A stretch of DNA of 64,000 nt, taken from positions 44,137 through 108,136 of the forward strand of contig JBBTQW010000001.1 in assembly GCA_038065495.1 (NCBI GenBank), read 5' to 3'. The notes below the pieces were generated by a model that was not told the DNA's origin, searched no databases, and worked only from the letters and a program-made list of their open reading frames with translations. Made by a program: the position numbers and the translations under genes. The DNA is from Patescibacteria group bacterium. Its GTDB lineage: Bacteria; Patescibacteriota; Minisyncoccia; Phycocordibacterales; JACOZG01. Below are positions 3,034 to 37,324 of the stretch, in pieces (position 1 is the stretch's first letter; each line of letters starts with the position of its first letter).

Positions 3034-3738
3034 TCAGCCCACAAGCGCCAGGACGATGTCACCGGCCTCGTGCTTACCATAAGCTGGAAAGAAGAAAAGA
3101 TTGAGAATCTTCTTCGTGCTCCACTTACCCAGAGCCAAGATATACTCTGTCTTGTCTTCTGTGCCGTCAGCAATCCCGAGGAAGCGACCATTGAGCGGAC
3201 ACTCCCTGTGATAGCGACTCATGAACTTAAGCAAGTGAACCGCCCGTGCTGGCCGAGCACCACGGAGCGCAAGCCATCTAACAATCTCGTCATTGGTCAT
3301 GTCGTCTCGGTCTAAGATGAAGAGCCGACAAGACACAATCTGACCGGCCTCTACGGTGTATGAGAACTCTTTCTGAAGAAGCTCACACTGTGTCACTGCC
3401 CGAGGGGCCTCAATTCCTGAAATTGGCCAGTTCCTGGCTGCCGTCTCGCCCGAAGATAGGTCGAGATAGAAAAGCTGCTCCTGAATCACCTCGGTCCAGA
3501 GAACAATCTGATTAGCTGGTGATTCTTGGGCCGATACCGGCGTCACCGCCACTGGTGGTGACAGAAACAGAACTCTCGCCTCAACCTTCTTCATTGGCAG
3601 AGCCGGCTGGACTCGCCGACCGAGACCGGTCAGACGATGAAGCAACCGATGCATCGGTAACCCCAGCCAATGAGGCCAGTGCCGAATCGTTCGGCTAATC
3701 TTGGTCGCCAGAGAAGCAATCAGAACATTGGTCTGCAC
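3034..3738 (-). CDS. hypothetical protein (Arg-rich N-terminus); GTG start
   Basis: 234-aa ORF with GTG start preceded by a strong SD (AAAGGAGGTGA, 5-nt spacer). A nested hairpin plus T-run terminator sits immediately after its stop. GC is visibly higher than the neighbours. No recognisable domain. Confidence 0.6.
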   Translation of the reverse strand: MQTNVLIASLATKISRTIRHWPHWLGLPMHRLLHRLTGLGRRVQPALPMKKVEARVLFLSPPVAVTPVSAQESPANQIVLWTEVIQEQLFYLDLSSGETAARNWPISGIEAPRAVTQCELLQKEFSYTVEAGQIVSCRLFILDRDDMTNDEIVRWLALRGARPARAVHLLKFMSRYHRECPLNGRFLGIADGTEDKTEYILALGKWSTKKILNLFFFPAYGKHEAGDIVLALVG

Positions 3739-3788
3739 AAGTCACCTCCTTTCGGGAGAGTAAAAGACCAGTCCAATTCCAGCCTACT

Positions 3789-4613
3789 CTACTCTATCTC
3801 GTAACGCAAGGTCACAGACACACGCACTTCTTGCGAACCGGGCTGGATGCTTGGCGCTGGAGCGGCCGCCATACCAAGATCGCGACTCGCCTCCATGCTA
3901 TAAATTTTGGTCATTGGATAATCCATACCACCTTCGTCGATACCCAATAATTCTCCAAGCGAGAAACCGGCCGCTTTGGCAATTGACTTAGCCTTAACCT
4001 TGGCCTCCGCAATGGCTTGAGCGCGAGCTTCGTTCTCGGCTGTCACTGGATCATCAATCGTAAAGTCGAGTTGCGAGACCGAGTTAGCGCCTTGTTTGAT
4101 TACACCCGAGAGCGCCTCGCCGATTTTACTAAAATTATCTTGGCGCACTTTCACCGAAACTGTCTGACTAATGGAGTAGCCAACGATCTCTGGCGGCGGA
4201 CAAGTCTGATTGAAACCGTCTGGACGAAAACCGCAATTGGCCGTCTCATAGCGCGGTGAGAGATTGTAACTCTCGGTCTTAATATCTTTCTCATCTAGCC
4301 CCTGATCTTTTAAGAATTTGATGGCTTTATTAACTTTCTCAGTATTGCTTGTCTGCAGTTTGCTAATATCGGTATCGCCCTCGGTGATTACGCTAAACGT
4401 GAACTTAGCGACGTCTGGCACCACCACCACCTTGCCCTCACCACTAGCCGAGAAGCTGCGGAAAGAGGCTGGCTGGATGGAACGCGCATAAGCGCTCACA
4501 TAACGCCAAGCGGAAAAAGCCACTAATAAAATGCTAATAATCAAAACCCAGCCCAAATAATTCTTTAATTTTTCAGTCATGTTCCACATTATAGCTTTTT
4601 TACTTCTAAACAC
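3789..4613 (-). CDS. SIMPL/DUF541-family periplasmic protein (YggE-like), N-terminal TM anchor
   Basis: 274-aa ORF. An N-terminal hydrophobic segment is followed by a SIMPL-like region (...SISQTVSVKVRQ...IAEAKVKAKSIAKAAGFSLGELLGIDEGG...). The start is ambiguous between 4613, 4589 and 4580. Confidence 0.75.
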   Translation of the reverse strand: MFRSKKAIMWNMTEKLKNYLGWVLIISILLVAFSAWRYVSAYARSIQPASFRSFSASGEGKVVVVPDVAKFTFSVITEGDTDISKLQTSNTEKVNKAIKFLKDQGLDEKDIKTESYNLSPRYETANCGFRPDGFNQTCPPPEIVGYSISQTVSVKVRQDNFSKIGEALSGVIKQGANSVSQLDFTIDDPVTAENEARAQAIAEAKVKAKSIAKAAGFSLGELLGIDEGGMDYPMTKIYSMEASRDLGMAAAPAPSIQPGSQEVRVSVTLRYEIE

Positions 4614-5359
4614 AAGAACAAGGGAAATTCATGTCTCGCGCTATTTTCTGCCTTTTGCCTTGGGCCAGATTCACTTTCGCGATGCGAGATCCACTCCTCT
4701 AATCTCGTGACCGCCAAGCCAGCACTAGCGATGAGCTTGAAATAATACTGCAACGGTCTATGAAAAGAAACTGTTTTCTCGCTGGCTGTCTGACTGCCCG
4801 GATGCATGAGGATTTCTGTCTTGCTCTCACTCATGTATTTATCCAGCCGACGAGCTTGCGTTTTCATTACATCATCCCAGAGCCAAGAACTAGCGCCAGC
4901 AATCCGGAACGCCGGATGGTTCAACACCAGAATTATTTTCCCTGACTTTTTCACTACTCTGTTTATTTCACTAAAAACTAATTTAATATTCTCAATATTT
5001 TGCACTGCCAGCACGCAGATTATTTTATCAAAACTGTTACTTTCTAAACTCGCTAAACTTTCTGCATTAGCAATAAGATATTTTATATTTTTGAAATTTT
5101 TACTATTTTCTTGCGCTAGTTTTACCAATTCAGAAGAAATATCAGCACCAACTATTTCTACTCCACCAACTCTCGCCATTTCGCGAGAGAAAAAACCCGA
5201 ACCACAAGCTAAGTCTAAAACTTTCTCGCCACTTTTTAAGTCCAGCAAGCGCAACAAATTTGGCAGAATTACTTGTTTCTGATAAGTGTCTGGATTCTGC
5301 TCGAGATGATCGTCGTACCAATCAGCGACATTGCCCCAAGAAGTGTTATTTTTTACCAT
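4589..5359 (-). CDS. class I SAM-dependent methyltransferase (Methyltransf_11-like)
   Basis: 256 aa with the VLDLACGSGFFSREMA glycine-rich SAM motif and a DKIICVLAVQNIEN motif II region. Confidence 0.85.
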   Translation of the reverse strand: MVKNNTSWGNVADWYDDHLEQNPDTYQKQVILPNLLRLLDLKSGEKVLDLACGSGFFSREMARVGGVEIVGADISSELVKLAQENSKNFKNIKYLIANAESLASLESNSFDKIICVLAVQNIENIKLVFSEINRVVKKSGKIILVLNHPAFRIAGASSWLWDDVMKTQARRLDKYMSESKTEILMHPGSQTASEKTVSFHRPLQYYFKLIASAGLAVTRLEEWISHRESESGPRQKAENSARHEFPLFLCLEVKKL

Positions 5360-5966
5360 GTTTTTTACGCCACCAGAAGAAGACGAGAATTGCGAGTAAA
5401 ATTATCAGTCCCAAATCTTCTAGTTTATTGAAATACTGACTGTATTTGTAGAAAGCGCCGCCGATTTGCCAGCCAAAGAAGCTCACCACGTAAGCGCGAA
5501 CCACGATACCAAAAAAAGTCAGTAAAATATATCTAGTCACTGGCAAGCGTGTGAGGCCAGAAAAGATATTAATCACCACGCTCGGGATTACTGGCACCAA
5601 GCGCAAGCCGAAGAACACCAACTCATCCGCCCGACCACGATGAAACCGGCCCTGCAACTGCTCGATCTCGAGCCAACTCACGCCCACATAGCGCCCCCAA
5701 CGCTCAATCGCCGGCTTGCCGAGGCGATAAGCCAAGCCGTAAGTGACCAGCGAGCCAAGCGTCAGCCCCAGCGCGACCGGGATAGCCACTTGAGTAAGTA
5801 GCGCGAGCAGAGAAGCGCCGGAGATAGCCTGCGCGCCGAGGATAAAAAATCCCGCCGAGAGCATCACTAATGCTGACGGAATCGGCACAATCACCTCTTC
5901 CGTAAAAGCCGCTAAGAAAGCGCCGAGCGCGCCATAATGCGTAATCCAATCAGCCAAGTGTTGCAT
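5346..5966 (-). CDS. DedA/VTT-domain family membrane protein
   Basis: The ORF extends to 6092, but the conserved DedA core begins at MQHLADWITHYGALGAFLAAFTEEVIVPIPS (start 5966). A TATAAT-like element lies just upstream. Downstream motifs YxLGKPAIERWGRYVG and FGLRLVPVIPSVV are typical of DedA. Confidence 0.8.
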   Translation of the reverse strand: MQHLADWITHYGALGAFLAAFTEEVIVPIPSALVMLSAGFFILGAQAISGASLLALLTQVAIPVALGLTLGSLVTYGLAYRLGKPAIERWGRYVGVSWLEIEQLQGRFHRGRADELVFFGLRLVPVIPSVVINIFSGLTRLPVTRYILLTFFGIVVRAYVVSFFGWQIGGAFYKYSQYFNKLEDLGLIILLAILVFFWWRKKHGKK

Positions 5967-7288: not shown

Positions 7289-8416
7289 CTATTCGTACGG
7301 GACATATTTACCATCACGAGCAACTTTTACGCTAGTTTGATCGTTAATGTCGCCGTTGTTGTCAAAATTGATCTGATACGATAAGCCGGGAAAATCAGAC
7401 AGGTCGTCTAATTGCTTCTTAATACATTCTCCAGAATAAGCGCTGTTCTGACAAGCTTCGCCAACAAACGAGAGAATCTTGATCGCATCGTAGTGACGCA
7501 AAGTGAGATAACTAAGAAAATCCTGACCGTAACTCTTCTGATATTCTTCGGCAAATTTAGCTGAGGTTTTATTAGTAGGAGCAGTCACTAGCAAGCCCTC
7601 GGCGGCAGATCCAGCTGTCGAAAATAACTCCGGAACATCACAGGGTTGCCCGCACATCATTGGCACTTTAATCCCCAACTCTTTGGCTTGTTTTAGGATC
7701 GTGCCAGCCTCACGATAGAGAGTAGCCAAGAAAATGCCATCCGGATTAGCCGCCTTGACCTTGGCCAGTTGCGCCCGATAATCCGACTGACCAGGAGCGG
7801 AACTTTCTTCCGCGACAATAGTGGCTCTATTGGCCGCATACTTCTTGAACGCGGCTAGAGCGCCAGTGCCATAGTCACTATTGAGATAAAGCACTGCGAT
7901 TTTCTTCTTACCAAGCTTATCGATAAGCACATCTGCCGTGAGTTCAGCCTCTTTATCCGCCGTACCCACAATGCGAAAAGCGTAATCATCCGGGGTCGAA
8001 TAAGCTGGAGCAGCTGTCAACGCGAGCATTGGAACTTGGTCTTGGTTAACGATCGGGATCAGAGGCATCGCGGCTGGACTGCCAAACACCACAACCACAT
8101 CCACCTTGTTTAACGTCCGCAGTTTATTGTAAGCACTTAGAGCCACTTTTGAATCATAAGCATTGTCCTCAAAAATCACTTCGACCTTCTTCCCTTCAGC
8201 TAGTAAATCTTTCACCGCCAATTCCACGCCCTGCTTGGCAAATTCCCCAGCACTAGCAATCGGTCCAGTCAGCGGCAAAATCGCGCCAATTTTAATTACC
8301 TTTTCAGTGGTAGGAGTGACTGGTGTTACTGAATCTTTCTTCACCAAACAAGAAATCCCCCAGATCACCAGAGCAATCACAACTATCCAGAGCACGATTT
8401 TTGTGGTTTTGTTCAT
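7289..8416 (-). CDS. ABC transporter substrate-binding protein, LivK/Peripla_BP_6 family, N-terminal TM anchor (paralog 1)
   Basis: 375 aa. A TM helix is followed by IKIGAILPLTGPIASAGEFAKQGVELAVKDL..., the Leu/Ile/Val-binding protein family signature. Confidence 0.85.
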   Translation of the reverse strand: MNKTTKIVLWIVVIALVIWGISCLVKKDSVTPVTPTTEKVIKIGAILPLTGPIASAGEFAKQGVELAVKDLLAEGKKVEVIFEDNAYDSKVALSAYNKLRTLNKVDVVVVFGSPAAMPLIPIVNQDQVPMLALTAAPAYSTPDDYAFRIVGTADKEAELTADVLIDKLGKKKIAVLYLNSDYGTGALAAFKKYAANRATIVAEESSAPGQSDYRAQLAKVKAANPDGIFLATLYREAGTILKQAKELGIKVPMMCGQPCDVPELFSTAGSAAEGLLVTAPTNKTSAKFAEEYQKSYGQDFLSYLTLRHYDAIKILSFVGEACQNSAYSGECIKKQLDDLSDFPGLSYQINFDNNGDINDQTSVKVARDGKYVPYE

Positions 8417-28391: not shown

Positions 28392-30578
28392 ATGAAATTA
28401 CTGATTGTCGAGTCGCCGGCGAAAGCGAAAACGATTGCCAAATATCTGGATGGCGAGTACACCGTGCGCGCGAGCGTCGGGCATATTCGTGATCTGCCGA
28501 AGAGTAATAAAAACGCGATTGATATCGAGGCCGGCTTCGTGCCGAATTATGTGATTAGTCCAGGGAAAGAAAAAGTGGTGAGTGAATTGAAAAGCTTGGC
28601 CAAGAAGGCTGAGAAAACGGTGCTCGCGACAGATCCGGACCGTGAAGGTGAAGCAATCGCTTGGCACATTAAGGAAGCACTGGGCTTGAAGAATCCGGAC
28701 AGAATCGTGTTCCATGAGATTACGAAAGAAGCCGTGCAAGAAGCGGCCGAACATCCAAGAAAAATTGATGAAAATTTAAGATCAGCGCAAGAGGCGCGAC
28801 GCGTGCTCGACAGACTATTTGGTTATGACTTGTCTGGTTTGATCTGGCAGAAGTTGCGCTACGGTTTATCAGCTGGCCGCGTGCAGTCCCCCGCGCTAAG
28901 AATCTTGGTGGAACGCGAACGCGAGATTAAAGCGTTTATTCCGGAAAAATTCTGGGTGCTGGAAGCGCTGTTGGCTACTAAAGAAAAAAAAGAAATCTTG
29001 TTTACTTGCGTAGAAGAGCCGAAGACGCAAGAAAGCGCTGACGAGATTGTGAATCTAGCGAAAAAATCAGACTGGCAAGTGGCGAGCGTCAAACAAACGC
29101 CAACGAAACGCTCGCCGCGCGCACCGTTTACGACATCAACGCTCCAGCAAGCGGCTTCTTCTCGTCTCGGCTACTCACCGTCTATCACAATGCGACTGGC
29201 GCAGAAGCTGTATGAAGCCGGTCACATCACTTACATGCGCACGGACAGCACTAATCTATCCCAACAAGCGCTGGCTGAAATTGCTGGTTTGGTGGAAACA
29301 CAATTTGGTCAGAAATATTTGCAAGTCAGAAAGTATGCGACTAAATCGAAGAACGCGCAGGAAGCGCATGAGGCGATCCGGCCATCTCACGCAAGTAATC
29401 TGAATGCTGGCAATTCGCCGCAAGAGCAGAAACTTTACAAATTAATCTGGTCACGCGCGGTGGCGAGTCAGATGAAAGACGCTGAGATGCTGAAAACAGA
29501 AATTATTGCGCAAGCTCGCCCCGCCAATGGCGGGGCAGGTGAGAAAAAAGTTCCTGATTTTAAAACTTTGGGATCAGTCATCACTTTCGACGGCTGGCTC
29601 AAAGCTGACCCGGCCGCGCGCGGCGAAGACGTGGAATTGCCAAAAATTTCTGACGGCGAAAAGCTTGATCTCAAAAATATCAACGCGCTTGGTAAAGAAA
29701 CGCAACCGCCGAAGAGATATAGTGAAGCTGGCCTCGTGAAAGAATTGGAAAAGCGCGGGATTGGCCGACCGAGCACTTATGCGCCCACCATCAAGACGAT
29801 TATTGATCGCGGTTATGTGGAAAAGGTGGAACGCAGTCTCAAGCCGACAGAAACGGGCGAAGTGGTGAGTAGCTTTTTGGAAGAAAATTTTGCCAGCTAT
29901 ATCAGCGACGACTTCACTCGCGAGATGGAAGATAAGCTGGACTTGATCGCGACTGGCGAACATGAGTATGTGAAGACGCTGAAAGATTTCTACGGCCCCT
30001 TCAAGAAAGAAATCGCGTCGAAGAAAAAATTGCCGAAAATTACTAATCTTGGGGCTGCGCCGGCTGATCTGCTCTGCCCGGTCTGTGGTAGCGCAATGAT
30101 TATCAAACTCAGTCGCTCTGGCAAATTTTATTCTTGTTCACGATTCCCAGACTGCGTGGGAGCGCGCAAGATGGACGGGAATGTGATGGAAGGGCCGAAA
30201 GAAACGGGCGAGCTCTGCCCAGACTGCAAAGACGGCAAATTGATCGAGCGCGAAGGTAAATTTGGTAAGTTTATTGCTTGCAGTAATTATCCGAAGTGCA
30301 AATTTATCAAAAAAGATCCAAGCCAAGAAGCAGCCGGCGATACTGGCGTAACTTGCACAGTTTGTAAGAAAGGCACGATGCGCGAGAAGCGCGGGAGATT
30401 TGGCATATTCTATGGTTGCTCAAATTATCCGGACTGCAAAAATATTATTAAAACCAAACCAACTGGCAAGATCTGCGAGATGTGTGGCGCGCTAATGATG
30501 GCGGGGACGAAAACGATTCCGGACAGATGCTCGAACAAAGCCTGCGCCAATCACAATCCGCACAAGCTGATGAAATAA
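28392..30578 (+). CDS. topA: DNA topoisomerase I with C-terminal zinc-ribbon repeats
   Basis: 728 aa with MKLLIVESPAKAKTIAKYLDGEYTVRASVGHIRDLP (Toprim), active-site Tyr region (HITYMRTDS) and three C4 zinc ribbons near the C-terminus. Confidence 0.95.
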   Translation: MKLLIVESPAKAKTIAKYLDGEYTVRASVGHIRDLPKSNKNAIDIEAGFVPNYVISPGKEKVVSELKSLAKKAEKTVLATDPDREGEAIAWHIKEALGLKNPDRIVFHEITKEAVQEAAEHPRKIDENLRSAQEARRVLDRLFGYDLSGLIWQKLRYGLSAGRVQSPALRILVEREREIKAFIPEKFWVLEALLATKEKKEILFTCVEEPKTQESADEIVNLAKKSDWQVASVKQTPTKRSPRAPFTTSTLQQAASSRLGYSPSITMRLAQKLYEAGHITYMRTDSTNLSQQALAEIAGLVETQFGQKYLQVRKYATKSKNAQEAHEAIRPSHASNLNAGNSPQEQKLYKLIWSRAVASQMKDAEMLKTEIIAQARPANGGAGEKKVPDFKTLGSVITFDGWLKADPAARGEDVELPKISDGEKLDLKNINALGKETQPPKRYSEAGLVKELEKRGIGRPSTYAPTIKTIIDRGYVEKVERSLKPTETGEVVSSFLEENFASYISDDFTREMEDKLDLIATGEHEYVKTLKDFYGPFKKEIASKKKLPKITNLGAAPADLLCPVCGSAMIIKLSRSGKFYSCSRFPDCVGARKMDGNVMEGPKETGELCPDCKDGKLIEREGKFGKFIACSNYPKCKFIKKDPSQEAAGDTGVTCTVCKKGTMREKRGRFGIFYGCSNYPDCKNIIKTKPTGKICEMCGALMMAGTKTIPDRCSNKACANHNPHKLMK

Positions 30579-30592
30579 GTTAGAATAGACTT

Positions 30593-31147
30593 ATGCCGAG
30601 CTGGCACATATTACTTACAATCACTCACCTCTTCGGCCTCGCGCTGGGCGCTGGCGGGGCCTTCGCGAGCGATTGGATCTTCCTCCTTAGCGCTCATGAT
30701 AGTCATATCTCGCGCACCGAGACGCGCTTCTTGAGCCTCGGCAGTAAGCTCGTCTGGACGGGCGTGGCGATTCTCGCTCTATCCGGCTTGGGTTTATTCT
30801 TACTCGATCCCACTCGCCTGCTCGCTTCGCCCAAGTTCCTCGCCAAGATGAGCGTTATTCTGATAATTATCTTGAACGGCATCTCGTTCCACTTTCTGCA
30901 CTTGCCCAGAATTAGACGCCATGCCGGCGAACACTTCCCCTCCTCCGACGAATTTATGCGTTACCGCTTCCCGCTCGTCGCGAGTGGCGCAATCTCCTTC
31001 GTCTCCTGGTCCAGCGCGCTCATCCTCGGTGCTTGGCGATCAGTTCCCTTTTCTTATCCCCAGATCATGCTCGTTTATCTCGCTACGCTGATTATCGCCA
31101 TTCTCGTATCTTATTTAGCCAGAAAAAAGCTTGTGCCGGATGAGTGA
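30593..31147 (+). CDS. hypothetical polytopic membrane protein
   Basis: 184 aa with 4-5 TM helices, just downstream of topA. Confidence 0.55.
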   Translation: MPSWHILLTITHLFGLALGAGGAFASDWIFLLSAHDSHISRTETRFLSLGSKLVWTGVAILALSGLGLFLLDPTRLLASPKFLAKMSVILIIILNGISFHFLHLPRIRRHAGEHFPSSDEFMRYRFPLVASGAISFVSWSSALILGAWRSVPFSYPQIMLVYLATLIIAILVSYLARKKLVPDE

Positions 31148-31965: not shown

Positions 31966-32910
31966 TTAAACTGTGAAATTTTTGAGATTATAAAGCTCGG
32001 CCTCGTCGTCAGGCGAGCTATCGTCTATTGCTTCTGGTAAAACTTCTGAAACATTTTCCGGAATCGGCGAGGCTTGTTGGAACTGCGGCGAGTTTAATAA
32101 ATCAAAAATTTGCGAGAGATCGTCATTGGAGAAAAAGTCGATAGTCACTTTGCCACCTACCTCTTTTTTTTCTACGCGCACGCGGGTGCCCAGTTTCTCG
32201 GTCAACTTCTGCTCTAGTTCCACGATCGTTGGATCAACGAGATAATTCTTGTTACGAACTTTCTCATGTGCCACTCTTCTGGCGAGACTTTCGGCCTCAC
32301 GCACGGTCAGTTTGCGCGTCATAATTTCTTGGAAGAGCGTTTGCTGTTCGGCTGGCCGGTCACCAAGCATCAAGAGCGGTCGGGTGTGACCCTCAGAAAT
32401 TTTCCCATCAGCCAGCGCTTGGATCATCTCGGCTGGTAGAGCGAGTAGGCGAATCGAATTAGAAACATACTCTCGACTCTTGCCCACGCGCTTGGCCACC
32501 TCCACATGCGTGAGTTTGAAGTCTTGGACAAGTTGCTGGAAGGCGCTGGCGCGATCCACCGGATTCAAGTCTTCGCGTTGCAAGTTCTCGATAATCGCCA
32601 TCTCCAGCTTGAGCTTATCGCTCTGCTCGCCGTCGCGGATCACCGCCGGCACTTGCGAGATGCCGGCTAGCTTAGACGCCCGCCAACGCCGCTCGCCAGC
32701 AATCAGTTCGTACTCCACGGCTAATCCCCCATCTGGCCGGGCAAATTCTTGTCTTGTCACCACCAGTGGCTGGAGCACGCCGTATTGCCGGATCGAATCG
32801 GCCAAGGCGCGGAGCTTGTCTTCGTCAAAGTCATGCCGCGGCTGAAAAGGATTCGGCTTGATCTTATCAACCTCAATCCAGAAGATAGCGTTATTGTAAG
32901 TCTCGCTCAT
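31966..32910 (-). CDS. parB: ParB/Spo0J chromosome partitioning protein (no adjacent parA)
   Basis: 314 aa. ParB box region IKPNPFQPRHDFDEDKLRALADSIRQYGVLQPLVV and the HTH region GISQ...VAKRVGKSREYVSNSIRLLAL. Confidence 0.85.
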   Translation of the reverse strand: MSETYNNAIFWIEVDKIKPNPFQPRHDFDEDKLRALADSIRQYGVLQPLVVTRQEFARPDGGLAVEYELIAGERRWRASKLAGISQVPAVIRDGEQSDKLKLEMAIIENLQREDLNPVDRASAFQQLVQDFKLTHVEVAKRVGKSREYVSNSIRLLALPAEMIQALADGKISEGHTRPLLMLGDRPAEQQTLFQEIMTRKLTVREAESLARRVAHEKVRNKNYLVDPTIVELEQKLTEKLGTRVRVEKKEVGGKVTIDFFSNDDLSQIFDLLNSPQFQQASPIPENVSEVLPEAIDDSSPDDEAELYNLKNFTV

Positions 32911-32932
32911 TTCTGCTATTTTAACACAAGTT

Positions 32933-33018
32933 GCCGGAGTGGCGGAATGGCATACGCATACGACTCAAAATCGTACGACCGCAAGGTCTTGTGGGTTCAA
33001 GTCCCACCTCCGGCACCA
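32933..33018 (+). tRNA. tRNA-Leu (anticodon CAA), CCA encoded
   Basis: Acceptor GCCGGAG/CTCCGGC, anticodon stem TACGA/TCGTA with loop CTCAAAA, a 15-nt variable arm, T-loop TTCAAGT and a 3' ACCA. Confidence 0.85.
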
Positions 33019-33021
33019 ATT

Positions 33022-33093
33022 GCTCTCGTCTTTCAATGGATAGGATATCTCCCTCCGAAGGAGATGATGCAGGTTCGATTCCTGCCGAGAGCA
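33022..33093 (+). tRNA. tRNA-Arg (anticodon CCG)
   Basis: Acceptor GCTCTCG/CGAGAGC, anticodon stem TCTCC/GGAGA with loop CTCCGAA, T-arm GCAGG-TTCGATT-CCTGC. The D-arm is imperfect by eye. Confidence 0.75.
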
Positions 33094-33102
33094 CAGTCAA
33101 AT

Positions 33103-33132
33103 AAAAAAAACCGGACGTTGGTGGTCCGGTTT
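33103..33132 (-). terminator. bidirectional hairpin terminator (ACCGGAC...GTCCGGT; T8 on minus strand)
   Basis: Plus strand reads aaaaaaaACCGGACgttggtgGTCCGGTtt. It follows the tRNA pair and terminates the minus-strand gene 33151..33345. Confidence 0.6.
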
Positions 33133-33150
33133 GAGCGTGATCAGTAAAAG

Positions 33151-33345
33151 CTAGTAAAGAATCGGTCCGTGGAAATCTTCCGCGGTAAGCCGCCGTGAAC
33201 GCTCAATTGCTTCCAACTCTTCGCGAGCGGCCTCACGAAACTCACTCACAATCCGCTCATGACGAATTCTGGCTTCCGCACTTGAGGCAAGAAGTTTACC
33301 AATTTCAGTTTCTTCAACCCGAAGAATTCGCGGTTTAAGACGCAT
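33151..33345 (-). CDS. small hypothetical protein (64 aa), charged/helical
   Basis: SD AAGGAGAAAACTAGT-ATG with a terminator immediately downstream. Confidence 0.45.
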   Translation of the reverse strand: MRLKPRILRVEETEIGKLLASSAEARIRHERIVSEFREAAREELEAIERSRRLTAEDFHGPILY

Positions 33346-33511
33346 ACTAGTTTTCTCCTTGTTACAGTTTACAAATGTGCGACTATGTCTATACTACATA
33401 AATTATGACCAAAAACAAAATCCTCGTCCTCCTCGGATCAACGGCCAGTGACAAAATAACAGAATAAAAAAGTGCCGTCCGTCTTGGTAGACGAACGGCA
33501 CTGGGATGGAA

Positions 33512-34378
33512 TCATGGTTTGGCAATCACCACTTGATCCTTCTTCCTGAATCGAGCAGTTGCTCGAACAATCGGCAGGACCACCAGAGCGGCAAATTGTG
33601 AGAAAGGACTTTCTTGAAGCCCGTCAGTATGGCTCTTGACCATATCGGCGAGCTCCTGTTCCTCCTCCAAGATAGTGTCGTAGCCGGGCCAGTCGATGGG
33701 GTCTTCTCCCGTATAATTGGCCCAGATCCGAGCAGCGTCCTTCTTGGACCTCTCATACTCCTCTTTCGCACCACGACGATAAACCTCCCAAGCGTGCATG
33801 ATCATCATGTCATACATACGGAAGATTGTTTTGATCCGCCGATCAGCCACCAAAGCCTTGAGCAACGACCCTACTAAGACCGCACCGAAGGCCAGGACGA
33901 AAGAAGCATAAGTCGGCTGCACTGGTTGCTCGAAGTTGACCCAAGGGATGAAGGCTTTACCAAAGGTAAAGCCGAACCCGCCGAGGATTGCGGTACGACC
34001 AAGTGCTTTGGCCAACCCAATCCGTTTGGTGGATTGAGTGATTTCTTGGATCCGGTGCTCGCGCTCCTTAATGGCTCGTTGTTCAAGCTCTTCCACATCG
34101 TGACGTCGTCGCTCGATACCTCGCGCCAAGGAAACAATCACCGTCTTGAGACCAGAGAGGAACTGCCATTCGGCTGTCCCAATCCGGGCCTCATACCTAC
34201 GGCAGACCTTCTCAAAATCACTAACCGACTCGGAAGCAAGCTTGAGAGTGGGTCGAGTTGAGCCACCATTCATGCTCGCCAGATAGTAACAGTAGGCAAT
34301 GTCGAGAACTCGGTCTGGTGTATAGAACGCCAAGGCCGAGTCCTTCTTTCGCGAACTCTTTCTCTTCATGTTCATCAA
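33512..34378 (-). CDS. hypothetical membrane protein (288 aa), GC-rich block
   Basis: Two central TM helices flanked by charged soluble regions. No recognisable domain. Confidence 0.55.
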   Translation of the reverse strand: MMNMKRKSSRKKDSALAFYTPDRVLDIAYCYYLASMNGGSTRPTLKLASESVSDFEKVCRRYEARIGTAEWQFLSGLKTVIVSLARGIERRRHDVEELEQRAIKEREHRIQEITQSTKRIGLAKALGRTAILGGFGFTFGKAFIPWVNFEQPVQPTYASFVLAFGAVLVGSLLKALVADRRIKTIFRMYDMMIMHAWEVYRRGAKEEYERSKKDAARIWANYTGEDPIDWPGYDTILEEEQELADMVKSHTDGLQESPFSQFAALVVLPIVRATARFRKKDQVVIAKP

Positions 34379-35193
34379 CCCTCGGGAGTAAGCTGGTTGG
34401 CGTCGTCCTCTTGACTACTGTGACTGTCGTGAGAATCGTGACCGGAATCAGTGATTTCGATATCGTCAGCCCCCTTCACAGCTACGCTGTCGTAGAGACT
34501 ATCGATACGACTCTCCTGCAATCTAAGAAACGGCACATTCTCTATCTTACGCAGAAGGCGCAAGCCATCAGGCGTAAAGATCAGGATTGTGCCAGCCAGA
34601 AGGAGCATCTGTTCGGCCGCATCGGGATACTGATAGCTCACAGTTTTAGAACCGCGAGCCAGCGAGTCATCCTTCTTGCCAAACTGATAATGCTCAATCG
34701 AGTTGGGCGAGAGAACCCAACGATCGTTCAGCCTTGTGTCAACAAACATGAGCGCCCCCAACATCGACAAGATAACACTGATAGTCAAGCCAAAGTTCGG
34801 ACTGTATGCCGGCTTCAGCTCCCAGAAGGTGTTCATGATTGTACTCAAGAACAAGACATTCTTGACATCTCTAAGCCACAAGCCACCGACCCAAAGCAGA
34901 GCAACCGCGACAAGAGTAAAAATCGTCTGGTCGCGAGAGAGCTCAAAGCCGAGCGCGATGACCACCAGCGTCAAGGCTGTAATGTAGGTCCAACCCGCCG
35001 CCTCTGGACTAATCCAGGCGTAATGAGTTGGTACCCACAGCAGAAACCCGAGAAGCCAGATGGGCCAGAAGAAGATGAACTTGGGATACGCGTACACAAC
35101 AATCTTGGTGGGATCGCGTTCCCGCTTGAAGACGCAGACGCAAGCACTGCAGACCTTCTTCACCGCGGACAAGGGATTAAACTTAAACGACAT
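34375..35193 (-). CDS. hypothetical polytopic membrane protein (272 aa) with Cys-rich N-terminus and acidic His/Ser/Asp-rich C-terminal tail
   Basis: Its stop overlaps the downstream start by 4 nt (ATGA), indicating a co-translated pair. N-terminal CSACVCV, 4-5 TM helices, C-terminal DSGHDSHDSHSSQEDD. Confidence 0.55.
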   Translation of the reverse strand: MSFKFNPLSAVKKVCSACVCVFKRERDPTKIVVYAYPKFIFFWPIWLLGFLLWVPTHYAWISPEAAGWTYITALTLVVIALGFELSRDQTIFTLVAVALLWVGGLWLRDVKNVLFLSTIMNTFWELKPAYSPNFGLTISVILSMLGALMFVDTRLNDRWVLSPNSIEHYQFGKKDDSLARGSKTVSYQYPDAAEQMLLLAGTILIFTPDGLRLLRKIENVPFLRLQESRIDSLYDSVAVKGADDIEITDSGHDSHDSHSSQEDDANQLTPEG

Positions 35194-35354
35194 ACCGTTC
35201 CTCCAGTGGTGCCGCCAGGCACCAAAAAGTTTTCAAAGAGCGTTCCAAACCATTGGAAGCCAGCAAGAGGTTAGCATACTACACTTTATTTGTCAATAGC
35301 CAAATTCTCCACCCCTGTTTGTGCTCTTGGGACAAAGAGTTTAAGGTGATAATA

Positions 35355-36248
35355 ATGAAAGTCCCCCATTTCCTCGTCATCCTCGGACCAACGGCCTCTG
35401 GCAAGTCAGGACTGGCTGTTAAATTAGCCAAAAAGTTTGATGGTGAAATAATCAGCGCTGACTCCAGACAAGTTTATCGCGGTTTAGATATCGGCGCGGG
35501 GAAAATTACAAAACGCGAAATGCAGAATGTGCCACACTATTTATTAGACGTGGCGAATCCGAAACGCGTGTTTTCTGTCGCGCAATATCAGAAATTGGCA
35601 AAGCAAAAAATTAGAGAGATTCTAGCGAGAAATAAATTGCCAATCATCTGCGGCGGCACGGGCTTCTATATTCAGGCTGTTGTTGATGATTTAGTGTTAC
35701 CAGAAGTGCAAGCTAATCTGAAATTACGTGAGAGCTTAGCGAGAAAAAATCCGGAAGAGTTATTTAAGATTCTGCAGAAATTAGACAAGACTAGAGCGCA
35801 GAATATTGATAAAAATAATCCGAGAAGATTAATTAGAGCAATTGAAATTGCGAAAAGTTTGGGTCAGGTGCCGAATTTTAATAAAAATAAAAAAGCTGAG
35901 AATGAAAATAAGAACATTGTAATCATTGGTCTCAATCCCCCAGCCGAAAAACTAAAAAAACTAATCAAGATTAGACTAGAAAAAAGATTAAAATCTGGAC
36001 TGATTACGGAAGTGAGAAATTTGCATGAGCAAGAGAAGTTGAGCTGGAAGAGATTAGAAAACTTGGGACTAGAATATAAATTTGTCGCGCTATTCCTCCA
36101 GAAAAAAATAAAAGATAAGAAAGAATTCACAGAAAAATTAAATACCGCGATTTGGCATTATGCGAAGAGGCAAATGACTTGGTTCAAGCGCGACGAACGA
36201 ATACGCTGGCTGACAGAAAAACAAGCGTTGAAGTTAAAGCTGAAATAA
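35355..36248 (+). CDS. miaA: tRNA dimethylallyltransferase
   Basis: Start at MKVPHFLVILGPTASGKSGLAV (P-loop), with ISADSRQVYRGLDIGAGKIT. The track ORF extends 34 codons upstream without an RBS. Confidence 0.85.
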   Translation: MKVPHFLVILGPTASGKSGLAVKLAKKFDGEIISADSRQVYRGLDIGAGKITKREMQNVPHYLLDVANPKRVFSVAQYQKLAKQKIREILARNKLPIICGGTGFYIQAVVDDLVLPEVQANLKLRESLARKNPEELFKILQKLDKTRAQNIDKNNPRRLIRAIEIAKSLGQVPNFNKNKKAENENKNIVIIGLNPPAEKLKKLIKIRLEKRLKSGLITEVRNLHEQEKLSWKRLENLGLEYKFVALFLQKKIKDKKEFTEKLNTAIWHYAKRQMTWFKRDERIRWLTEKQALKLKLK

Positions 36249-36603
36249 GACAATACAAGCACCAAGCGTTAATCACGAAAGCTTGGAGATAAACGAAAGC
36301 AAGCGAGGCCGAGAACGCAAGCAAACTGAGCCACCAGACTACTTTGATCAACTTTTTATTCGGCTGTTGAAGGTTAAGTAAGATTAAAATAAAAACCGTG
36401 AGATAGAAAAGCGCGCCAAGCAGAGCGACTGGCACGCCAGCGATCTGGGAATAGACACTATTCGTGACCGTATCGCAACCAGCTAGGATAGTACACGGGA
36501 TAGGCGTGCCAGTGTAGTGCTTGATCGTGAGAAAAGTGGCATCGGCAAAGCCAATGAAGCTAAGCGCTAAGAGCGTCAGTGATAAGTTTTTTGAATTCAT
36601 CAT
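36184..36603 (-). CDS. vitamin K epoxide reductase (VKOR) family membrane protein
   Basis: 139 aa. VKOR family placement is by resemblance only; no canonical CXXC redox motif was located. Confidence 0.7.
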   Translation of the reverse strand: MMNSKNLSLTLLALSFIGFADATFLTIKHYTGTPIPCTILAGCDTVTNSVYSQIAGVPVALLGALFYLTVFILILLNLQQPNKKLIKVVWWLSLLAFSASLAFVYLQAFVINAWCLYCLISALTSTLVFLSASVFVRRA

Positions 36604-37324
36604 AACTTTTAGGATTAGTGATCTTGCCGCCGTTTAAGTAAAAAGTGGGTGTCCCCTCCACGCCCGAGCGCAAGCCACTCTGATAATGTTGCTCGATTTT
36701 ATCTTTTACTATTTTGGTATCAATATCAACTTCGAGTTTAGTGAGATTAACGCCGGTATTTTTTATTAAATTTACTAGTGTCTCGCGCGCGGCAATCTGC
36801 TCGGACCAAGCCTGCTGACCAGCATAGATTGCATCGGCGGCTAACCAGAACTTGCCCTGCAAACCAGCCGCCTCGACTACTTGTGAGGCCAGTTGAGCGT
36901 TCGCGTGATTCTGGCGGAGTGGGAAGTGGCGGAAGGTCACACCAATCTTATCACCAAACTCCTCACGCAACTGCGTTACCCAAGTAGCATAAAAGGCGCA
37001 AGCTGGGCATTGGAAGTCGCCATACTCCACCAATTGCACTGGAGATTCTTGACTACCAGCCGTCCAATCTGCGGCGGTCACCGGATCAGCCAGCTTGCCC
37101 GCCACAGCGCCAGCGCCTGGAGGCGTGACTGTGGCGAGTTTATATAAACCAAAAACCGTGCCAGCGAGAATCAATACTGCGAGTAACCAGGGCCAGAGTT
37201 TGCGTCCAGAATTACCACCACTACTCGCGCTAGCGCTGGAATTGCTATTCTTCTGCTTTTGCCGCGCCTCGCGCTCTTGCTCGTAAAGTTCTTTGGGACT
37301 CAAATTAGATTGATTTTCAGTCAT
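36560..37324 (-). CDS. DsbA-like thioredoxin-fold thiol:disulfide oxidoreductase, TM anchored
   Basis: 254 aa. A TM anchor is followed by YGDFQCPACAFY (CXXC). It overlaps the VKOR gene by 44 nt. Confidence 0.8.
   Translation of the reverse strand: MTENQSNLSPKELYEQEREARQKQKNSNSSASASSGGNSGRKLWPWLLAVLILAGTVFGLYKLATVTPPGAGAVAGKLADPVTAADWTAGSQESPVQLVEYGDFQCPACAFYATWVTQLREEFGDKIGVTFRHFPLRQNHANAQLASQVVEAAGLQGKFWLAADAIYAGQQAWSEQIAARETLVNLIKNTGVNLTKLEVDIDTKIVKDKIEQHYQSGLRSGVEGTPTFYLNGGKITNPKSYDEFKKLITDALSA

Follow-up and report, generated by a model that had tools for sequence, protein, structure and literature searches.

The locus considered here lies in a 64,000-nucleotide (nt) stretch of the genome of a Patescibacteria group bacterium (contig JBBTQW010000001.1); this whole stretch is called the window below, and coordinates are positions in it unless another locus is named. 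Members of the Patescibacteria have tiny genomes, and the routes by which they gain genes are poorly understood. Between the gene of ParB and miaA, which codes for tRNA dimethylallyltransferase, the window contains two tRNA genes on the plus strand and three genes, denoted A, B and C, on the minus strand. Genes B and C encode membrane proteins, and the comparisons described below provide good support for the view that these two genes are accessory cargo inserted at the start of miaA.

Genes and signals of the locus

The first-pass annotation of this DNA, made from the letters alone, had read three minus-strand genes next to a pair of tRNAs, and these genes are real, with open reading frames (ORFs) of 64, 288 (285 as annotated) and 272 amino acids (aa). 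Gene C (34375..35193, minus strand, 272 aa) has a GGAGG ribosome-binding site and is followed, on the same strand, by gene B, which codes for 285 aa from the ATG at 34369 chosen in the public annotation (33512..34369) and for 288 aa from the TTG at 34378 (ORF 33512-34378). A strong terminator hairpin of 14 pairs with a T-run (33471..33502, minus strand) closes the C-B operon. Antisense to C, the plus strand has a 338-aa ORF (34258-35274) that exceeds C in length and is chosen by a naive search for the longest ORF; it was dismissed as a shadow ORF, because the minus-strand frame has homologues and a confident structure model.

The C-B operon is framed by two versions of the miaA start. On the right lies miaA itself (35355..36248, plus strand), which is intact and encodes 297 aa with IPT/IPPT domains (Pfam IPPT). 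On the left lies a relic of the miaA 5' end, a 20-codon ORF on the plus strand with the product MTKNKILVLLGSTASDKITE* (33405..33467), and 9 nt upstream of its ATG there is a promoter-like site (33368..33395, plus strand; TTTACA, 16 nt, TATACT; 10/12 matches). A repeat search revealed a 26-nt direct repeat shared by the two starts: the left copy, TCCTCGTCCTCCTCGGATCAACGGCC, occupies 33421..33446 on the plus strand, and the right copy, 35371..35396 on the same strand, falls within codons 6-14 of the functional miaA (MKVPHFLVILGPTASGKS...). The copies match at 24/26 nt, are 1,950 nt apart and bracket B and C; they are the sole matches in the 64 kb, and 100 shuffles produced 0. The ATG codons of the relic and of the active miaA stand in the same register to the repeat core.

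The amino acid sequences indicate which of the two starts is typical of the clade. A Lys directly precedes the hydrophobic strand of the MiaA N-terminus in 26/30 relatives (e.g. MNKIIVILGPT); the relic, MTKNKILVLL, matches this pattern, whereas the active start, MKVPHFLVIL (PHF-LVIL), does not, and the first six codons of the active gene (MKVPHF) are atypical for the clade. Identical A and MiaA proteins are encoded by five contigs in all, each of which has the same arrangement, so that misassembly can be ruled out.

The slot between tRNA-Leu(CAA) and miaA

Scanning species-representative genomes with MiaA yielded nine syntenic relatives, with MiaA sequences 47-64% identical to that of the window. 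Their common gene order is TopA, ParB, tRNA-Leu(CAA), a slot of variable content, miaA, tRNA-Trp, L33, tRNA-Tyr and ClpB (L009, L010, L012, L016, L018, L022, L028, L029, L030). The left landmark of the slot is tRNA-Leu(CAA) (32933..33018, plus strand), which adjoins ParB in 9/9 of these relatives, and in the window the slot extends over 32911-35354. It is free of genes, at 85-314 nt, in L029 and L030, and it has other contents in seven further relatives: a peroxiredoxin in L008 and L028, a YNCE-like beta-propeller protein with a cupredoxin in L009, MurB-like and HTH-EPSP-synthase-like genes (MurB/MurA-like) in L010, a histidine kinase with a membrane protein in L012, a 144-aa protein without assigned identity in L022, and, in L018, a 285-aa protein without assigned identity, a C5 DNA methylase and a PPDK_N/PEP-utilizer gene. 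The window genome is the only one with B and C in the slot (0/9 syntenic relatives). The presence/absence comparison that the first-pass annotation had suggested thus reveals a polymorphic locus, empty in two relatives and with different cargo in seven others.

Since the slot of the nine syntenic relatives lacks B and C, and since both genes are bracketed by the 26-nt repeat of the miaA 5' end, they appear to have been acquired. The inserted unit consists of B and C without gene A, because A falls beyond the repeats, ends at a terminator of its own and is not kept alongside the pair in other loci. As for the course of the insertion, a segment of ~1.95 kb, comprising the terminator, B, C, a new promoter with a ribosome-binding site and six replacement codons of miaA, would have recombined with the chromosome inside the 26-nt core, either by a single crossover of a circular intermediate or by a site-specific event catalysed in trans. 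The original miaA start would thereby have been displaced and left behind as the relic, with miaA itself kept intact.

The first-pass annotation had also called this region acquired accessory cargo, on grounds other than the ones given here. The status of cargo is supported by the absence from the slot in nine relatives and by the 26-nt repeat; of the original grounds, the GC shift fails, and the placement next to the tRNAs is not accompanied by a tRNA-derived attachment (att) site. The guanine-plus-cytosine (GC) content does not jump after the tRNAs: in sliding windows it first drops there, to 0.45-0.47 over gene A and the spacer, and amounts to 0.50-0.53 over B and C, with ParB next door being richer than either (0.56-0.575; 0.54-0.55 over 30500-31099), so that the only visible contrast is with the AT-rich miaA (0.35-0.44). 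Among 60 ORFs of the window, gene B (GC 0.525) stands at the 83rd percentile and gene C (0.516) at the 80th; the GC content at third codon positions (GC3) of gene C, 0.64, is at the 97th percentile, and the synonymous-codon fit is at the 8th-18th. The composition of B and C is therefore mildly deviant, is no outlier and gives no stand-alone signal. A direct repeat of a tRNA 3' end, which would mark such an att site, was not found either: with up to 3 mismatches allowed, the 64 kb contain a single occurrence of the 3' end of tRNA-Arg and a single one of that of tRNA-Leu, and a local repeat search likewise returned none, so that the tRNA-att hypothesis is rejected. In contrast, the reported absence of an integrase is confirmed, as A, B and C are the only genes between ParB and miaA and none of them has a recombinase domain.

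Could B and C be ordinary core genes that were inherited vertically, with the 26-nt repeat being a coincidence of the P-loop coding sequence? Such a reading is compatible with the GC content of both genes, which is inside the range of the window, with the presence of B and C on all contigs of the species, and with the wide distribution of the C family, usually in stable chromosomal contexts. However, core genes would hardly be missing from the slot in 9/9 syntenic relatives, whose contents vary by genome; the repeat matches at 24/26 nt at the DNA level and is accompanied by an in-register ATG and a promoter-like site, and the 100 shuffles produced no match; and B has only four clusters of homologues among 5.8 billion proteins. 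We consider vertical inheritance of the pair highly improbable.

Independently of the window, a second insertion into the 5' end of miaA is evident from the sequence of L018 (contig JAHIHZ010000028.1, region 3336-5830). Here a 141-nt repeat of the miaA 5' end, 95% identical between the copies, flanks a single gene, that of the 658-aa PPDK_N/PEP-utilizer protein; the 5' fragment of miaA comprises 56 codons (3336-3506), and the full miaA begins at 5597. In the same locus, the genes of the C5 cytosine methylase and of the 285-aa protein lie directly upstream of the repeat-flanked gene. Among 40 related loci, L018 was the only one with a further miaA 5' relic; a match in L013 turned out to be a chance match inside another gene, and one in L033 an unrelated 33-nt repeat. 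The latter, GGAATTCCGAGAGCTTCGCTCGAGGAAGGAAAA, is exact and is found at 7807-7839, upstream of miaA, and at 8172-8204, within the region that aligns with miaA, and may be a small repeated element that interrupts miaA.

The locus is reminiscent of integrative elements that enter at gene ends, with an att core within the target gene, in that the cargo stands between short direct repeats, one of which is internal to the target, and in that the target ORF, miaA, stays intact and its displaced original end is kept as a relic. Unlike these elements, the insert of the window has no integrase or recombinase, is only ~1.95 kb long and carries two genes; it sits in a protein-coding gene, at the 5' end, rather than at the 3' end of a tRNA; and the comparable repeat of L018, at 141 nt, looks more like the product of homologous recombination. 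There is also a likeness to the flexible genomic islets at tRNA hot spots, in which the cargo at one fixed, tRNA-adjacent position changes from one related genome to the next, although in our case the tRNA end is not duplicated and the scar has been left in miaA, at the opposite border of the slot. What is most unusual about the locus is this scar in the 5' part of miaA, which comes without a recombinase. In the form of a 26-nt repeat with a relic miaA start, it is a tangible trace of gene gain, for which L018 provides a second independent case.

Proteins C and B

Protein C was described in the first-pass annotation as polytopic, with a Cys-rich N-terminus and an acidic tail rich in His, Ser and Asp, and both hydropathy and composition agree with this description: there are four strong hydrophobic segments, three of the first 30 residues are Cys, and the tail contains 10 Asp/Glu, 3 His and 6 Ser. 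An indexed search with C returned only 8 homologues (35-44% identity), whereas an exhaustive profile search showed that the family includes at least 419 representative clusters (50% identity) at E <= 0.001, of which 221 remain at E <= 1e-10; the members are mostly full-length proteins of 220-320 aa. Scanning A, B and C against Pfam, NCBIfam, PADLOC and PHROGs gave nothing significant, and C has no Pfam hit at E <= 1. When 82 members of the family (C and 81 relatives) were compared with Pfam and NCBIfam up to E <= 10, only scattered noise was obtained, with no family of the pleckstrin homology (PH) clan (bPH). A sequence search of the PDB with the C profile found no relative, and a library of viral folds gave no match.

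The structure of C was modeled by AlphaFold2 with the 82-sequence alignment (a run with 8 sequences gave a predicted local distance difference test score, pLDDT, of 54), which resulted in a pLDDT of 89.1 and a predicted template modeling score (pTM) of 0.77. In the model, an amphipathic helix (7-22) and a short strand (31-34) precede four membrane helices (38-57, 63-82, 87-110 and 132-156); a further, short helix occupies 115-125. The last membrane helix leads straight into a beta-rich domain (158-220) capped by a helix (223-235), that is, a beta-sandwich with a C-terminal cap helix as in the PH fold (158-235), and the acidic tail that follows is disordered. Conservation in the family is highest in the PH-like core, with W159, N164, D191, E194 and G201 as the top positions and E167, H168, R180, K183, Y189 and P190 being common as well; the Cys-rich N-terminal tail is not conserved. 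The prediction that C is a four-helix membrane protein with a PH-like C-terminal domain is thus well supported by the model.

In the wider C family, the gene is mostly solitary. In 40 loci it is found among genes for alcohol dehydrogenases, a PfkB kinase, SDR proteins, an MFS transporter and ComF-like proteins, and the neighbors over these 40 loci together with four C-B loci comprise dehydrogenases, kinases, HU, RluD, Wzy, tRNAs and the like. Eight loci have, directly upstream of C and on the same strand, a gene for a protein of 490-570 aa (L001, 6444-7985; L088, 4450-5991; L102, L103, L118, L119, L122 and L123) in which an N-terminal membrane hairpin is joined to a soluble part that is large, conserved and without a match in Pfam. 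A relation of this protein to B was considered and rejected (hhalign probability 0.4%). As this upstream protein is unrelated to B, C seems, at the sequence level, to pair with different membrane-hairpin partners.

Protein B shows by hydropathy two central hydrophobic segments, as had been claimed, although only the first is strong, the second one being weaker and Gly-rich; the corresponding hairpin covers approximately residues 120-143 and 152-176. The N-terminal region is basic, and the C-terminal region carries a conserved EEYxRxKxDA..W motif, which is one of four sets of conserved positions in the protein, the others being PDRxLDxAY, VSLxxGIxRR and, in the first hydrophobic segment, GGxG; these positions do not suggest a catalytic site. 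The first search with B found one homologue (48% identity), to which a two-sequence profile added three at 33-35%, and these four clusters are all that was detected among the 5.8 billion proteins, which makes B a rare orphan family. B has no Pfam match, no PDB match with the B profile and no similarity to C.

In every readable B locus, a homologue of C lies directly upstream of B on the same strand. Besides the window, these are L006/L132 (a 1.0-Mb contig with GC 0.44; C of 266 aa, B of 286-289 aa), L125 (GC 0.64; C of 262 aa, B of 318 aa) and L127 (GC 0.63; C of 256 aa, B of 319 aa), so that the order C-then-B is kept in four lineages at 33-53% identity. It is well supported by these comparisons that C and B make up a conserved two-gene module. 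In L132 (9541-9813) and L127 (1199-1549), a gene for an HU-type DNA-binding protein lies directly upstream of C-B; the gene is co-oriented in one case and divergent in the other, the lineages are distant, and this may be a coincidence.

The two genes had been reported to overlap by ATGA in the window. The junction, GAGGGTTGATGAACATG, does not contain such an overlap: depending on the start codon of B, the genes overlap by TTGA (from the TTG), overlap by 1 nt in TGATG (from the first ATG) or are separated by 5 nt (from the annotated ATG). Nevertheless, the stretch GAGGG(A/T)TGA is common to the window and L132, and tight translational coupling of C and B is plausible in the window lineage because the homologous pair of L006/L132 has a true ATGA overlap.

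The gene that follows the pair varies: its product has 64 aa in the window, an unrelated 78-aa protein takes this place in L006, and L125 and L127 have a Cys-rich one of 114-118 aa. The two versions of the Cys-rich protein (L125:9102-9458, L127:3737-4081) share 78% identity; the protein contains the motifs CCDQNKPKCC and CLRVCQGGP, by which it looks redox- or metal-related, and may represent a third component specific to these lineages.

Possible role of the C-B pair

The closest likeness, in terms of the predicted fold, is to the bacterial membrane PH proteins YdbS and YdbT (bPH_2, PF03703). YdbS consists of two helices and one PH domain, and YdbT of six helices and three domains (PMC8657885); the paired YdbS/YdbT-like membrane PH proteins DdE and DdF are required for the export of a leaderless bacteriocin, enterocin DD14 (PMC8657885). 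Like these proteins, C is predicted to have a PH-like beta-sandwich with a C-terminal helix right after the membrane helices, facing the cytoplasm, and, as with DdE and DdF (PMC8657885), its gene is adjacent to and co-oriented with the gene of a second membrane protein. In contrast to YdbS and YdbT, there are four membrane helices in front of a single PH-like domain in C, the partner B shows no detectable PH domain, and no bacteriocin or transporter genes are found nearby.

By analogy with DdE and DdF, one could suggest that C and B constitute a device for the export of a small peptide or bacteriocin, or for self-protection against it. The placement of C's PH-like domain just behind the membrane helices, the pairing and co-orientation with another membrane protein, the fact that DdE and DdF are both needed for bacteriocin export (PMC8657885), and the small ORFs that adjoin the pairs (64 aa in the window, 78 aa in L006) could be taken in this sense. 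However, the adjoining small proteins are not mutually homologous and, being highly charged, do not resemble bacteriocins; gene A is outside the repeats and behind a terminator; and neither a bPH match in Pfam, nor a PH domain in B, nor an ABC transporter or bacteriocin gene in the vicinity could be found. An export or self-protection function therefore appears improbable to us.

Another possibility, raised in the first-pass annotation, is that B and C form a two-component membrane module of anti-phage defence, abortive infection or immunity, in which one protein would sense infection and the other would disrupt the membrane. It could be argued in favor of this idea that the pair is accessory and resides in a variable slot, which in L018 holds a C5 methylase, probably a part of a restriction-modification system; that the two membrane proteins are tightly linked; and that both families are unannotated, leaving room for an undescribed system. 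Positive evidence is, however, absent. When the membrane proteins were checked against profile models of defence systems, as had been proposed, PADLOC gave no significant hit (the best one, of B against PbeC, had E = 0.019 and 11.5 bits over 80 residues, and A and C had none). There was no PHROGs hit and no viral fold match, and scans of viral contigs with B and C found no relatives. The homologues of C (419 clusters) are mostly solitary among metabolic and housekeeping genes, and the C-B pairs of L125, L127 and L132 have no defence or mobile genes in their ordinary chromosomal neighborhoods; more generally, no recurrent defence genes, integrases or phage genes were seen near C or C-B pairs in the examined loci. 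Finally, neither protein has a nuclease, protease, NTPase or other effector or sensor domain. We regard a defence module as quite unlikely, and a dedicated anti-phage system as less likely than an accessory function in the membrane.

The account that we favor, with moderate confidence, is that the C-B unit was inserted at miaA via the 26-nt core and encodes a membrane complex with an accessory role, loosely resembling YdbS/YdbT. The two proteins are probably made together, with the GAGGG that encodes the last residues of C serving, in the window lineage, as the ribosome-binding site of B, and would assemble into a complex in the cytoplasmic membrane. The PH-like domain of C would then have its conserved polar face (N164, E167, H168, R180, K183, Y189, D191, E194) at the inner membrane surface, where this face could bind a ligand or a partner, and B would provide a helical scaffold. 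By analogy, such a complex would most likely serve the membrane in an accessory way, for instance in maintaining the envelope, in tolerating stress or in handling small molecules or peptides.

Several observations weigh against this account. With regard to the insertion, no recombinase is present in or beside the insert; a strain of the same species with an empty site was sought by exact-protein look-ups, and all five contigs found were occupied, the empty slot being seen in distant relatives only (MiaA 47-64% identical). The mechanism and the direction of the insertion are thus only inferred, because both a recombinase and a same-species empty-site strain are missing. Furthermore, the repeat core has no exact run of more than 8 nt, which is short for homologous recombination, and the GC content of B and C bears no mark of foreign origin. 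With regard to the function, the account is drawn from fold analogy alone: the best Foldseek E-value for the model of C is 0.011, with the bacterial PH structure 3b77 ranking 22nd, and neither C nor any of its 81 relatives matches a bPH model (bPH_1 to bPH_6, YcxB and related). Since the sequence match is lacking, the architecture differs and B shows no PH domain, membership in the YdbS/YdbT family is not established, and the pair as such is probably not of the YdbS/YdbT type, because no PH domain is detectable in B. Translational coupling of C and B is not universal either, given that 106-130 nt separate the genes in the two high-GC lineages.

A bolder reading would be that C and B constitute an undescribed two-component membrane system built on a new PH-like family, which moves as a recombinase-less cassette to the miaA 5' end and brings along a replacement start. 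This seems rather unlikely to us. If true, the case of L018 would point to a general route of gene gain at the miaA site in Patescibacteria.

The B and C families are new to the curated databases, even though the themes, a bacterial PH-like membrane protein and a variable chromosomal slot, are known ones. The locus thus defines two unannotated families, of which C extends the spectrum of PH-like membrane proteins known from bacteria. In practical terms the yield is modest, consisting in targets for family curation, with no new mechanism demonstrated.

The remaining features of the segment lie on either side of the insert. Both tRNA genes of the left flank, tRNA-Leu(CAA) and tRNA-Arg(CCG), are called by ARAGORN and by Rfam and thus are real, as had been stated before; an Rfam scan of 32800-35500 found nothing beyond these two. 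The gene of tRNA-Arg(CCG) (33022..33094, plus strand) starts 3 nt past tRNA-Leu(CAA) and is absent at the matching position in the relatives (0/9). It may have been gained earlier together with gene A (33151..33345, minus strand), which has an AAGGAG ribosome-binding site and encodes a charged protein of 64 aa without a hydrophobic segment; a sequence search of the PDB gave no match for protein A, and no homologue of gene A stands next to other C-B pairs. Gene A is closed by a terminator-like hairpin (33108..33132, minus strand; 9 pairs, then T8) and, having its own terminator, represents a transcription unit separate from the C-B operon. This hairpin had been described as a bidirectional terminator; it is indeed flanked by an A-run and a T-run, but the scan scores a terminator on the minus strand only, for gene A, the T-tract of the plus strand being weak. 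On the other side of the insert, the 3' end of miaA (plus strand, to 36248) overlaps convergently, by ~65 nt (36184-36248), the 3' end of a VKOR-family gene (36184-36603, minus strand), which in turn overlaps a DsbA-like gene (36560-37324).

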